From: Marispirochaeta sp.
Lineage (GTDB): Bacteria > Spirochaetota > Spirochaetia > JC444 > Marispirochaetaceae
Length of the DNA: 64,000 bases
NCBI GenBank assembly: GCA_963676835.2
Contig: CAXXFF010000002.1
Coordinates: forward strand, 352,001-416,000
Reading direction: 5' to 3'
This document shows positions 9,665 through 13,865 of this stretch, in pieces (within the stretch, counting starts at the first letter, position 1; the number at the start of each line of letters is the position of its first letter). A program made the position numbers and the translations under genes. The notes under the pieces were generated by a model. That model was not told where the DNA came from, searched no databases, and worked only from the letters and a program-made list of their open reading frames with translations.

Positions 9665-11599
9665 TTAGCCGAGCTTGTCTACAGGAACAACTGCACCGAA
9701 CTTCTCTTTAAGAGCGTTGAGTTCAGCTTTCTGCTGTTCGTAAACCTTGAAGAGCTGGGGAGGAAGGTTGGTTTCCTTGCTGTATGCTTCTTCCTGGATT
9801 GCAATTCTCTTGAGGATGTTGTCCACATAGAGTGCAAACTGCATGTCGTAGAGACTCTTGGGGTACTCTTTGCTGATTCCGTCGAAAAGTTTCTTGAGGT
9901 CCTCATATTTGGGGATAAATCCAATGGGAGTCTCAATAGCTTCAACGTCACCGTTTGCATAAAGCTCAAGCCAGCCGAGCCATACCTTTACGTCTTTCTT
10001 CTCACCGAGAAGACCCTTTCCGGAGCTTCCGCGGTTCTCATGGGTAAGGAAGTAGTTAAGACCTGCCATGATGGGCATGCTCTTGATTTTACCGGAGTTG
10101 AAGAACTTGAACTGTGCATCCATGTAGTCGGAAAGTGCACCGGGTACGAAGGGGGCATTTGCCCAGGGCTGACGGTTAACACCGGTAGCTCCAACCTCGG
10201 TAGCAGTTGCCTTGGAAACTACGGAAGCTCCGATGGCAACACCGGCGTCAGCGCTCTTGGCAACCCAAACGGGAACCATGGTGTCCGCATCACGTCCGGA
10301 GTAGGTAATAACCTGAAGGTGGACACCGTTGGGATCTTCAGCATCTTTCGCATTGTAGTTGTCAATGGCAGTACAAGCGAGGGTACAGCGGCTGTTGGGG
10401 TGCGACATGGGAACATCCTTCATTGCAGGAGTCCATTCGCCCTGAAAGTTGGTTCCCTTTGCAGGAATCTCTTCACCATCACCGATCCAGCGGGGTTTCT
10501 TGTTCTCGTCGATAAGAACGTTGGAGAAGATAACAGTAGTACCTTCGTTGCGGAGACGTTTCATGAGGTAGGGGTCGCCCTCTTCATTTACATCTTCTAC
10601 AATTCCGAAGATACCTGCTTCAGGGTTGATTCCCCGAACAGTTCCGTCATCTGCAATCCAGATCTGTGCAAGGTCGTCACCGATGAAGTCGGTACCAACC
10701 ATTGCGGTGGTAGTCTTTCCACAACCGGAGGGTGCAGCACCTGCGAAGTAGGTCTTACGTCCGCCAGGGCCGGTCATACCGGTAATAAACATGTGCTCGG
10801 AAAGCTCTTCCTCAACCTTGTAGTAGGTTGCCCGGTCTACCGCGAAACGGTGATTACCCTTCTTGAGAAGCAGGGTGTTACCGGCATAGGTACAGTAGGT
10901 TGAGTAACAGGTCTGCCAGGAGCGGTCCATGTAGATCCGTGCATTGGGCACGTCTTCGGGCCGGTTGGGTCCCTGGCTGTGTACGTTGGTAAGGAAAGTT
11001 CCCGCACGTTCTGCTTCTGCGTCGAAGTCAGAGAAAACGTTACGGTAAAGAAGATCACCACTGGTCTGTACATAGGTGGAAGAGGTGATCATAAGAGCAG
11101 GAAGAGAAGCCTTTGCACCGACAGGTCCGCGGTTCAGGAAGGAAACGTACATGGTAAGTCCCTTCATGATTCCCTTCATCTCTTTTTTGATGTACGCGTG
11201 AGACTCAGAGCGGAGCTCTTTTTTAGCCAGTGCGCTGATGTCTTCGTCTTCGTTTACGATGTAGAAAGTCTGCTTTACCAGACGTCCCTGATCCTGGGGA
11301 AGGTCAAAGTGGATAGTGTGATCTTTGATTGCCAGGGGTGCTTCTTCACCGGTTTCAATACTCTTCTGCTTTACATAAGCAGCATCTGCAGCGGAATCAT
11401 CGATAATGAAAACACTGTCGGGCTCACACATGGAAATTGCGTTAGCAATCTTCAGCAGGGCCTCTTCGTTCTTGATTTTGTTGATTTTTGCCAGGTTGGC
11501 TGCATCAAGGTTGGATTCAAATACCTTGCGGGCTTCGTCAATAGACTTTACACCGCCGACGTCTGAAAGGATATCTACCCCTTTCTTCATCTCTAACAT
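9665..11599 (-). CDS. pckG: Phosphoenolpyruvate carboxykinase (GTP)
   Basis: YAGN..LKK, LSEHM, kinase-1a GAAPSGCGKTTTAM, IGDDLA, INPEAGIFG, SHPNSR. Confidence 0.93.
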   Translation of the reverse strand: MLEMKKGVDILSDVGGVKSIDEARKVFESNLDAANLAKINKIKNEEALLKIANAISMCEPDSVFIIDDSAADAAYVKQKSIETGEEAPLAIKDHTIHFDLPQDQGRLVKQTFYIVNEDEDISALAKKELRSESHAYIKKEMKGIMKGLTMYVSFLNRGPVGAKASLPALMITSSTYVQTSGDLLYRNVFSDFDAEAERAGTFLTNVHSQGPNRPEDVPNARIYMDRSWQTCYSTYCTYAGNTLLLKKGNHRFAVDRATYYKVEEELSEHMFITGMTGPGGRKTYFAGAAPSGCGKTTTAMVGTDFIGDDLAQIWIADDGTVRGINPEAGIFGIVEDVNEEGDPYLMKRLRNEGTTVIFSNVLIDENKKPRWIGDGEEIPAKGTNFQGEWTPAMKDVPMSHPNSRCTLACTAIDNYNAKDAEDPNGVHLQVITYSGRDADTMVPVWVAKSADAGVAIGASVVSKATATEVGATGVNRQPWANAPFVPGALSDYMDAQFKFFNSGKIKSMPIMAGLNYFLTHENRGSSGKGLLGEKKDVKVWLGWLELYANGDVEAIETPIGFIPKYEDLKKLFDGISKEYPKSLYDMQFALYVDNILKRIAIQEEAYSKETNLPPQLFKVYEQQKAELNALKEKFGAVVPVDKLG

Positions 11600-11735: not shown

Positions 11736-12764
11736 TTATTTCCGACCCTTATACTTATATACATCCTTTACGGACCTGGATATCTGCTTCCATTTCTTCA
11801 GTTCTTCCTGCCTTGCCTGATAATCCGTACGTCTCTCCAGATATTTCAGCTCTTTCCGCAGTTCCAGATAGGCTTCATAGCGGTCTGCAGCAATGGCCCC
11901 CTCTTCCACCGCCTTCAGAACCGCACATCCCGGTTCCGAGATATGGGTGCAGTCCCGAAACCGGCAGTCACCGGCAAAGCTGTCAATCTCACTGAATACC
12001 GTATTGAGAGAATCTTCTCCGCCCCAGAGCTGCAGCTCCCGAAGGCCCGGGGTATCAATCAGAAAACCTCCGGAAGGGAGTGCCACCAGATTACGGGAGG
12101 TTGATGTATGCCTTCCCCGCCGGTCCTGATCCCTCTGAGCTCCCGTATCGAGCAGTTCACTTCCGGCCAGGGCATTTATAAGGGAGGATTTGCCCACTCC
12201 GGAAGGGCCGACAAGCACCGCTGTTGTATCTGCAGTGACCGCTCTCTGCAGCTCAGAAATTCCATCCCCGGTTAAGGTGCTGGTAAGAATCAGCTTTACA
12301 CCGGGGGCGGCTTCTTCTGCTTCAACAAGCACAGTCGCCAGATCTGAACAGAGGTCAAGCTTATTAAGGATCAGAACAGGTTCAGCTCCGCTTTCCACTG
12401 CCAGAGTAAGATAGCGTTCAATACCCCTGCGGGTAAAATTGCGCCCTCCGTCCAGGCCGGCAACAATGCCGACAATATCAACATTGGCTGCAAGAATCTG
12501 TTCTTCGCTCTTTTCCCCGGCGCTCTTTCGGCTTATGGCACTTTTCCGGGGTAGAATCTCATCTATCACTTCCCCCTCATCACGCAGCCGGACCCAGTCT
12601 CCCACTACGGGAAAATCCGACTTCTTCTCCGCGCTATGGCGAAACGATCCGGAAACAGAACAGGTAATATCCTGTTCACCGATACGAACTCTGTAAATAT
12701 GGGTACCTTCTCCGGTAACCCGGCCGATACGGCTGTTTTCACTGTTATTGTGTATATCTGACAT
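11736..12764 (-). CDS. rsgA: Ribosome small subunit-dependent GTPase A (circularly permuted GTPase) with C-terminal helical extension
   Basis: PVVGDWV, LNKLDL, GPSGVGKSSLIN, RGRHTS, DTPGLRE, zinc finger CRFRDCTH..EPGC. Confidence 0.93.
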   Translation of the reverse strand: MSDIHNNSENSRIGRVTGEGTHIYRVRIGEQDITCSVSGSFRHSAEKKSDFPVVGDWVRLRDEGEVIDEILPRKSAISRKSAGEKSEEQILAANVDIVGIVAGLDGGRNFTRRGIERYLTLAVESGAEPVLILNKLDLCSDLATVLVEAEEAAPGVKLILTSTLTGDGISELQRAVTADTTAVLVGPSGVGKSSLINALAGSELLDTGAQRDQDRRGRHTSTSRNLVALPSGGFLIDTPGLRELQLWGGEDSLNTVFSEIDSFAGDCRFRDCTHISEPGCAVLKAVEEGAIAADRYEAYLELRKELKYLERRTDYQARQEELKKWKQISRSVKDVYKYKGRK

Positions 12765-12946
12765 AGTATTTCCTCACAGCCGGCGGAAATCCCGCAGCTG
12801 CAGTATGGACCTATCTGTACGGCGCAATTTTGTTCGTTATTTGCGGTACAGCCATTGAGATGTTGTATTTACGGATAGGGTGTTCCCGGAAAGAAAAGTC
12901 AGGAAAAGGAGAAAATTTTTAAATTGTGATCCCACGTTCCTGGGTA

Positions 12947-12982
12947 TCAGCCGGGGAAAGACCCTCGAATAACTGCAATCAT
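12947..12982 (-). CDS. Putative leader peptide MIAVIRGSFPG upstream of rsgA
   Basis: GGGAGGT-7nt-ATG ATT GCA GTT ATT CGA GGG TCT TTC CCC GGC TGA; lies between a promoter and rsgA. Confidence 0.65.
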   Translation of the reverse strand: MIAVIRGSFPG

Positions 12983-13045
12983 CAAAACTACCTCCCGAAA
13001 AGAGATTGGATCAGATTCAGTATGAATCCTTGTTATCCTGAGCAT

Positions 13046-13075
13046 ATCCTACATCCTGCTGTCCAGAACCGTCAA
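13046..13075 (-). promoter_or_regulatory. Putative promoter of the rsgA leader transcript
   Basis: TTGACG(13075-13070)-18-TAGGAT(13051-13046). Confidence 0.55.
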
Positions 13076-13133: not shown

Positions 13134-13865
13134 TCAGGATTTATACTGAATACTGCAGGCGAAGGATTCACTGCCGTCGGACAGTATTCCCCGCACGGTT
13201 GTAGATCCCTCAGCATCGCTCCGCTGAAGCAGTACCCGGTCATTCCAGGCGGCAGATTTCGCGTAGCTCACAGCAAACCCGGAAGGTTCCACCCGGTTGA
13301 TCTCCTCCGGAGCATAACAGTCGGTTGCCCAGCGGAGGTAACGTATATTGTTTACATGTCCCTGCTGATCAAGATCCGAATAGCGGGCGGTAACCTCGAG
13401 TTCAGAGCGGATATCTCCTGAAGGAGGAATTTTCCCGGCGGTTCCGGGGATCGCTTCTCCGGCAGCAGAGAAATCAAACTTTTCAAACACCGCTTGCGGC
13501 CGAACGGGTCGGAGGGAACTGGTGTCGAGCAGCATCCAGCCGCTGGTGGCTCTGACTATTTCAGCCCCGCTGCTGTCGAGAATACGGTAATCCCTTCTGG
13601 CCAGTGGGCCCTGGGGGACCTTCGGCCAGGTTTCGACAACAATACTTTCCCGGTGTCCGGGAAGGCGGACGATCTCGGTCTGCAGCCGGGAAAGAACCCA
13701 CATACGGCCTTCTTCGCGGCAGTAGCTTTCACCGAAACCGTGGACCTCCGCCTGAAGAAGGGCCGCCTCCTGAAAGAGGGCGGAAATCGCCGGCAGGGTC
13801 ATAAGGCCGCGGATACCGGTTTCACTGTAGATAACGGTATGGTTGAAGGAATACTGCAGATCCAT
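13134..13865 (-). CDS. Acyl-ACP thioesterase (double hot-dog)
   Basis: WVLSRL, ETWP, RYSDLDQQGHVNNIRYLRW; GGAGG SD. Confidence 0.9.
   Translation of the reverse strand: MDLQYSFNHTVIYSETGIRGLMTLPAISALFQEAALLQAEVHGFGESYCREEGRMWVLSRLQTEIVRLPGHRESIVVETWPKVPQGPLARRDYRILDSSGAEIVRATSGWMLLDTSSLRPVRPQAVFEKFDFSAAGEAIPGTAGKIPPSGDIRSELEVTARYSDLDQQGHVNNIRYLRWATDCYAPEEINRVEPSGFAVSYAKSAAWNDRVLLQRSDAEGSTTVRGILSDGSESFACSIQYKS

Follow-up and report, generated by a model that had tools for sequence, protein, structure and literature searches.

The locus

The window, a stretch of 64,000 nucleotides from a Marispirochaeta genome, carries on its minus strand a leader located between an acyl-ACP thioesterase gene and an rsgA gene, with a gene for PEP carboxykinase next beyond rsgA (Table 1). 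A short upstream open reading frame (uORF), preceded by a Shine-Dalgarno (SD) sequence, ends 182 nt before the rsgA ATG at 12764. All the leader features listed in the earlier note were recovered in place, including the pyrimidine tract, both downstream helices and the last hairpin (12800-12777). The anti-RBS, complementary to the ribosome binding site (RBS) of rsgA, pairs through CUGAC (12902-12898) with GUCAG (12762-12758), and through UUUCC (12892-12888) with GGAAA (12773-12769).

Table 1. Position of the rsgA leader features and of the neighbouring genes in the window.
Feature	Position	Strand	Remarks
Acyl-ACP thioesterase gene	13134..13865	-	upstream neighbour only; syntenic in 5/5 same-genus genomes
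Sigma-70-type promoter candidate TTGACG-18-TAGGAT	13046..13075	-	-35 at 13075-13070, TAGGAT at 13051-13046
CATACT	13019..13024	-	at the place of the -10 in the kin alignment
uORF Shine-Dalgarno GGGAGGT	12990..12996	-	7 nt ahead of ATG 12982
uORF MIAVIRGSFPG-stop, 11 codons	12947..12982	-	putatively translated
P1 5' arm	12951..12965	-	uORF codons 6-11; starts at +18, just past an initiating ribosome
Anti-SD pairing with the uORF SD (helix A0 of the OFF state)	12907..12912	-	seen in this leader
Anti-RBS of rsgA	12888..12902	-	within the P1 loop; two bases common with the P1 3' arm
P1 3' arm	12877..12889	-	complementary to 12965-12951
Stable internal hairpin	12815..12851	-	probability 0.82-0.98 across modelled states
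Constitutive hairpin just 5' of the rsgA SD	12777..12800	-	0.99-1.0 in every modelled state
rsgA SD GAGG (12775-12772) and ATG (12764)	12764..12775	-	probably the former RNHCP start
Accessory RsgA, 342 aa	11736..12764	-	zinc finger and 48-residue C-terminal helix, residues 293-340
GTP-dependent PEP carboxykinase gene	9665..11599	-	downstream neighbour only; own promoter candidate at 11714-11685

The leader of the window is an unremarkable folder (z = -1.27, 21 of 200 shuffled sequences being equally good), and an unbiased search for the best helix paired the uORF with a different segment (z -0.7). No match above gathering score was found when the window was scanned with Rfam. In the window by itself, the leader features are not beyond chance, and it is the comparison with relatives that makes the case. 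A second short frame, MAVPQITNKIAPYR followed by a stop (12854-12810, minus strand), has no Shine-Dalgarno and probably arose by chance.

An accessory RsgA clade

RsgA is a GTPase stimulated by the 30S subunit and active in the release of RbfA. The protein encoded here scores 168.4 bits with TIGR00157, for a curated cut-off of 100, and displays the RsgA motifs NKLD, GPSGVGKS and DTPG in the G4-G1-G3 order, as well as a CxxxxCxHxxxxxC zinc finger. At 67% identity, its nearest titled relative is a Marispirochaeta protein. Two RsgA genes are present in the genome, this accessory one and a housekeeping one, so that the second rsgA envisaged in the earlier note does exist. In a quick tree of 47 proteins, 30 accessory and 17 housekeeping copies split with an SH-aLRT of 100. 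Accessory copies have 54 to 74 residues after the zinc finger (39 in one truncated row), against 25 to 42 in the housekeeping ones. In the structure model, residues 293-340 form a single helix of 48 residues (mean pLDDT 81.9); the C-terminal helical extension noticed earlier is therefore real in the model, and marks the accessory clade.

Matches to the accessory RsgA (E at most 1e-55) were present in 143 of the 401 Spirochaetia genomes, and the clade is also present in many other phyla. Our literature search found no functional study of it. Several side observations concern these proteins and their neighbours. Switch I reads GRHTST in this genus (residues 217-222, approximately 12115-12098 in the window; L002, L003 and L005), versus GxHTTT or HTTS in most accessory copies; the altered Thr of HTST may be the G2 residue. 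An RsgA-like match occurs in 193 plasmid records, and on a Lysinibacillus plasmid (L195:3920-5442) the gene immediately after the accessory rsgA is annotated as FosM, for fosfomycin resistance. In one family (L042, L043, L049), a gene that we identified by eye as encoding a MATE-like membrane protein lies 3' of rsgA.

Conservation of the uORF

The comparison used 129 accessory loci of Spirochaetia, the window among them, some 20 of the weakest or contig-edge matches being left out. The start was callable in 127 loci other than the window, and in 123 of these the upstream sequence was 300 nt or longer. A uORF was scored when a GGAGG core was followed by an ATG and a frame of 8 to 25 codons ahead of the first gene, rsgA or RNHCP. 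This rule was met in 83 of the 123 loci, covering 30 of the 41 families; 8 loci had a weaker core and 32 no uORF, some of the latter being misses with GGGGG or GAGAGG cores. The background was taken from the other genes of this genome whose upstream region has 250 or more free bases; of these 740 genes, 8 passed the rule. None of 18 housekeeping rsgA loci did, a weak control since most of them lie inside operons. An ATG was found 4-11 nt after GGAGG at 85 of 99 leader sites, versus 13 of 232 sites within rsgA. In all five other genomes of the genus, an SD, an ATG and a short ORF occupy the syntenic place. The SD-uORF pointed out in the earlier note is thus kept in orthologous leaders, across the class as within the genus, and these counts indicate that it is not there by chance.

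When a profile was made from the leaders of the 5 kin, the window being excluded, its top match in the genome was this leader (E 0.0017). Profiles from distant RNHCP-type leaders, or from a 37-nt start block, did not pick it out, meaning that the case for homology outside the genus is positional and architectural. Among the non-spirochaete loci, only 3 of 40 passed the rule. Two frames were remarked along the way. In 16 Bacillus/Gottfriedia accessory rsgA loci (L054, L057, L058, L061-L067, L069-L071, L074, L086, L089), a conserved upstream frame of 20 codons (MGKLINLVQKKV...), outside the uORF rule, ends about 36 nt ahead of rsgA. A GGAGG-led frame of 13 codons before an EF-G gene (C1:147690-147830), counted as background, overlaps the flank of a tRNA-like gene on the opposite strand.

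No description of a leader for rsgA or RNHCP turned up in the literature search, which covered neither subscription papers nor preprint supplements; the present leader might figure unnamed among the motifs tabulated in such supplements.

Constraint on the RNA and helix P1

The peptides of 96 curated uORFs, 4 of them added by hand, have only a loose common start, with Ser at residue 2 in 39 and Val at residue 5 in 44. The 3' half behaves differently: its CCTGT motif, carried by 41 uORFs, falls in one frame in 26 of them and in a second frame in the other 15. In 22 sequences of the same register (231 pairs), synonymous divergence pS was 0.00 in codons 8-11, compared to 0.84 in codons 6-7 and 0.46 in codons 2-5; in the latter, pN was 0.33, that is a pN/pS of about 0.7. 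The use of two frames, the frozen synonymous sites and the covariation with the P1 3' arm described below together indicate that the 3' half of the uORF is conserved as RNA, not as a peptide.

Permissive duplex folding of the uORF against the leader was too loose to define P1, and a local-helix search was used instead. Covariation was examined in 34 leaders of the RNHCP type, aligned with plain MAFFT; they are the 40 shortest minus 5 leaders of the genus and one near-duplicate. P1 was paired in 89.6% of the cells, and two-sided changes numbered 17, versus 5.1 after shuffling (reached in 0 of 500 shuffles), far above slid registers; these counts are inflated by kinship, and the structure was taken from one member. 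Helix covariation, which the earlier note had looked to as a check, is therefore found for P1 in these leaders. The window is absent from this alignment and its P1 (12965-12951/12889-12877) was matched by position; its genus kin have different sequences paired at that place.

Of the 40 best-supported leaders, 21 have a P1 that starts at +17 to +22. An initiating 30S gives a toeprint at +16 (PMC9226507), so that P1 would begin just past it, a point we counted in favour of the reversed switch proposed below. No conserved stalling peptide was found among the 96 uORFs, where only a weak hydrophobic bias at the N-terminus was seen; the macrolide motif R/K-x-R/K occurs in only 11 of them and is absent from the window. 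The idea that the 3' half of the uORF copies the downstream RBS in sequence was rejected (longest common word 4.74, for 4.52 expected), and conservation of the capture of the uORF SD by helix A0 was not supported (median z +0.25 over the 96 leaders, 6 of them below -1.5).

RNHCP and its loss in the window

Rather than rsgA itself, a gene for an RNHCP zinc-ribbon protein (PF12647) comes first in 58 of the 127 loci. All five same-genus genomes have the order thioesterase, promoter, uORF, RNHCP, rsgA; among loci L001-L049, RNHCP lies 3' of rsgA in four (L022, L024, L026, L027). No RNHCP was detected elsewhere in the present genome (97% complete) by tblastn, with a profile of our own or with PF12647. 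The RsgA of the window has 13 residues ahead of the first conserved strand, the commonest number being 26. Its start is nearer to the RNHCP start than to the rsgA start of kin in 5 cases out of 5 (scores 17-27 versus 14-16); the RNHCP-start score was reached by 1 shuffle in 500 for L005 and for L006, and by 14, 45 and 119 of 500 for the others. To judge from these sequences, an in-frame deletion probably placed rsgA under the RNHCP start, with the loss of RNHCP. The N-terminus of this RsgA, MSDIHNNSENS (12764-12730), resembles RNHCP N-termini of kin (IHHTQENT). Elsewhere, leaders L099, L113 and L114 have a short RNHCP-like start remnant (ATGTCC) ahead of rsgA, which suggests repeated RNHCP loss.

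Promoter region

The promoter candidate of Table 1 matches at 9 of 12 positions; 6 such matches were found, versus 3.6 expected. Its TTGAC is unchanged in the 6 sequences of the genus, and a TTGAC..xAxxxT promoter precedes 52 of the 96 uORFs, mostly 29-34 nt ahead of the AUG. Transcription would start near 13039. Relative to the kin alignment, the window has an insertion of about 28-33 nt between CATACT and the -35, and transcription may also begin near 13012. Inside this insertion, absent from kin, four AGGAT words occur within 32 nt (13057-13026, minus strand), the sole such cluster in the genome. They resemble the consensus of CsrA sites, and csrA is present in the genome; a short tandem duplication is a simpler cause of the cluster.

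Overlap with the anti-RBS and modelled ribosome positions

In 58 of 92 leaders, for 35.5 expected, the 3' arm of P1 overlaps with the segment that pairs best with the downstream RBS. The sequences involved vary by clade: GGACAU faces the RNHCP start AUGUCC, UCCCCUG faces CAGGGGA, and AGAGUUUCCG faces CGGAGACUUU. The GGACAU:AUGUCC anti-start helix is 88% paired, without covariation.

Ribosome positions were represented by equilibrium folding models with an assumed footprint of 30 nt. In the nascent leader RNA of the window, P1 is predicted to fold first (0.88-0.98). The complete leader without ribosome would be a near-even mix, with P1 at 0.39-0.55 and a cost of 3.9-4.0 kcal for opening the rsgA start, which is paired in the minimum free energy (MFE) structure. 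With a ribosome at codons 1-2, the predicted values are 0.70-0.88 for P1, 0.05-0.10 for the anti-RBS and 3.4-3.9 kcal for the opening cost; at codon 1 specifically, P1 rises to 0.83-0.88 from its ribosome-free level, and the cost shifts by just 0.1-0.2 kcal. With a ribosome at codons 10-12, P1 is melted in the model, the anti-RBS reaches 0.89-0.98, the uORF SD is captured and the opening cost is 6.9-7.4 kcal, an increase of about 3.3 kcal/mol. More generally, occupancy of codons 6-12 would close the rsgA start; with a ribosome at codons 1-5, its openness would match or slightly exceed that of the free state. The competing helices of the earlier note are not the main switch in the models: 12879-12870/12819-12810 is minor (0.02-0.62 over the states), and 12851-12841/12827-12815 persists (0.82-0.98).

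The same calculation was extended to other leaders. Blocking the last rather than the first codon gave a predicted opening cost more than 1 kcal higher in 42 of 81 leaders and lower in 7, compared to 28 higher and 47 lower among 162 versions with a shuffled middle. This effect is modest (median +1.06 kcal); by family, the means are above +0.5 in 27 of 35 and below -0.5 in 1. Relative to the free state, the modelled codon-1 state is more open in 14 of the 35 families and less open in 5, and the last-codon state is more closed in 25, with no family showing the opposite. Within the genus, L001 and L004 are predicted to switch clearly and L006 partly, and L002, L003 and L005 have no last-codon closing. 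The Brevibacillus leader closes in the models at middle codons and does not close at the last codon. In one clade (L022, L024, L026, L027, also L149 and L153), the uORFs end with GSQG and the modelled switch is very strong, 3-8 kcal.

Proposed mechanism and alternatives

Sequence comparison and folding models lead us to favour, with some reserve, the view that the conserved leader works as a reversed translational attenuator of the accessory RsgA. The 3' half of the uORF would pair with an element that otherwise hides the rsgA start. Nascent RNA would fold P1 first, keeping the anti-RBS off. Normal ribosome traffic through the uORF would melt P1 and let the anti-RBS form, turning rsgA off; with no ribosome, or with one held at codons 1-2, P1 would be kept and the rsgA start would be more open. 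Candidate inputs are a shortage of 30S, poor initiation, or drugs holding ribosomes at or near the start codon, and the output would be extra RsgA, plus RNHCP in most relatives, to act on small subunits that are immature or under stress. Termination by Rho within untranslated rsgA may form a second layer. Since the 3' arm of P1 overlaps the anti-RBS, the folding models give a logic opposite to that of erm or toiL: mutating the uORF ATG is predicted to raise rsgA expression rather than abolish it, and late stalls are predicted to repress it. In these models, the C/U tract is explained as an anti-SD plus an anti-AUG. The idea of a uORF-based switch, put forward in the earlier note, thus finds support in the leader conserved in loci of the class and in the covariation of P1, its switch states coming from the folding models.

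A Rho-dependent attenuator of the corL/mgtL kind would act in the same direction with a different output step: P1 would hide a rut site, translation of the uORF would expose it, and Rho would stop transcription before rsgA. Rho is present in the genome, the tract has a C-minus-G count of 14 in 60 nt (top 6% of 1097 upstream regions), the median of this count is 11 for leaders versus 6, and corA is controlled via Rho and rut (PMC11552253). A simple scan found no intrinsic terminator in any of the 96 leaders, nor on the minus strand of this one. However, C-richness is expected from the anti-SD and P1 arms regardless of Rho, the strong C tract is absent in 3 of the 5 kin (scores 2, 8 and 8), and the overlap that is conserved is with the RBS; we hold this scheme to be unlikely. 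The classic attenuator of the erm/toiL type, in which the RBS is closed by default and opened by a ribosome stalled in the uORF, was the model of the earlier note, and we rate it as quite unlikely. It agrees with the paired rsgA start of the ribosome-free MFE structure and with the families more open in the codon-1 state than free (14 versus 5 of the 35). Moreover, 65 of the 96 uORFs have Ala, Ser or Thr at residue 2 or 3, compared to a background of 37%, which would suit early stalls of the chloramphenicol type (by the context rule given in PMC12121999). Against it, late-codon occupancy closes the RBS in the models, the last-codon state being more closed than the free one in 25 of the 35 families and more open in none, and the uORF pairs here with the anti-RBS, whereas that of toiL pairs with the RBS. 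An erm-like switch, turned on wherever a ribosome stalls in the leader, does not agree with the closing predicted for codons 6-12, and no conserved stalling peptide accompanies it.

We see little likelihood that the hydrophobic N-terminus (M-S/T/L-V/A/D-I/F-V) is an arrest peptide specific for one drug or metabolite, the fold just reporting an early stall. Besides the frequent Val at residue 5, the uORFs have 1.72 hydrophobic residues at positions 3-5 versus 0.95, several synonymous codons are in use for the N-terminal residues, and the uORF of Streptomyces rimosus begins with MAVIAM; but the pN/pS of about 0.7 in codons 2-5 (0.33/0.46), the lengths varying from 9 to 25 codons and the rarity of R/K-x-R/K, which the window lacks, speak against such a sensor. 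It is highly improbable that this copy is no longer regulated, the SD-uORF serving for stabilisation or as a standby site for ribosomes, or surviving as a relic from before RNHCP was lost. The insertion in the promoter region, the loss of RNHCP and the unremarkable fold at this locus would fit such decay, but the SD, the ATG, the open frame and the P1 complementarity are kept even though the P1 sequence differs from that of kin, and the modelled switch is intact in the window.

A further reading, possible though doubtful, is that of a feedback gauge of ribosome biogenesis: without any drug-specific peptide, the leader would read the number of competent 30S able to start and to move off a perfect SD, and would release the long-tailed RsgA and RNHCP to repair or mature small subunits. 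Were this true, it would represent an undescribed 30S quality-control module, extending from spirochaetes to Streptomyces and Bacillota. If the input is the supply of 30S, the leader would feed the capacity for initiation directly back to a factor that matures the small subunit. In any case, the leader is a cheap route into the accessory RsgA clade, and the prediction that loss of the start codon derepresses while late stalls repress separates the model from erm-type switches. According to the folding models, the leader likely senses ribosome trouble.

Comparison with known systems

HflXr and the ARE-ABCF proteins are accessory translation-factor paralogs that are controlled by a uORF and serve in intrinsic resistance or rescue. 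The housekeeping RsgA/YjeQ/CpgA (TIGR00157; PDB 5no2, 1t9h, 6h4d) has in common with the accessory protein the circularly permuted GTPase, the OB-like N-terminus and the zinc finger; it forms a separate clade, without the uORF leader. The best sequence match of the accessory RsgA in the PDB has an E of 2e-39, and no match covers the tail.

A link with translation stress, proposed in the earlier note, is supported through Streptomyces. SCO6149 of S. coelicolor, a member of the WblC/WhiB7 regulon, is an RsgA paralog activated by WblC, 68.4-fold under tetracycline when the wild type is compared to a wblC mutant, and the Ada-like gene SCO6150 comes next in its operon (PMC7157823, Table S2). This control is exerted by a transcription factor and is no test of the leader; the part of that paper used here reports no leader, function or resistance phenotype for SCO6149. 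On a plasmid of S. rimosus, rsgA belongs to the accessory clade and is followed by a gene for an AlkA N-terminal domain. Given this gene order (rsgA-Ada/AlkA), SCO6149 is likely the ortholog of the S. rimosus accessory rsgA, and it is by gene order that it is placed in the clade. The S. rimosus leader has a GGAGG-led uORF of 23 codons, whose end pairs with the flank of an anti-SD hairpin; the same fold switch is predicted, with a modelled shift of only about 0.6 kcal.

Three known leaders deserve comparison. toiL-topAI of E. coli has, like the present leader, a short uORF and translational control by long-range pairing, possibly with secondary Rho termination, and it responds to ribosome drugs including start-codon arrest (PMC12121999). 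The toiL uORF itself base-pairs with the RBS of topAI, which opens wherever the ribosome stalls, and induction falls when the start codon is mutated (PMC12121999); here, by contrast, the uORF pairs with the anti-RBS, and late occupancy is predicted to close the rsgA start. For uORF(MIN) of vmlR in B. subtilis, and for cplR and vga(A), arrest at the start codon turns on the gene of an accessory translation factor (PMC9226507, PMC12121999); such arrest may favour the ON fold here too, the models giving a higher P1 and an almost unchanged opening cost. In vmlR, however, an intrinsic terminator is used and induction needs initiation on the uORF (PMC9226507), whereas no terminator was found in the 96 leaders and the untranslated state is predicted to be ON-like.

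The leader departs in a defining feature from each known leader family to which it was compared. By the folding models, the closest logic is that of corL-corA and mgtL-mgtA in E. coli and Salmonella, where efficient translation of the uORF represses the downstream gene, as modelled here, and where loss of the uORF start derepresses it, as predicted here (PMC11552253). Their OFF fold also sequesters the SD of the uORF, like helix A0 in the window (PMC11552253). They differ in acting via Rho and rut, while the conserved target here is the downstream RBS, and in sensing Mg2+, through Pro and acidic codons in the case of mgtL, ahead of a Mg transporter rather than RsgA and RNHCP (PMC11552253); among the 96 uORFs, there is no conserved pattern of Pro or acidic codons.
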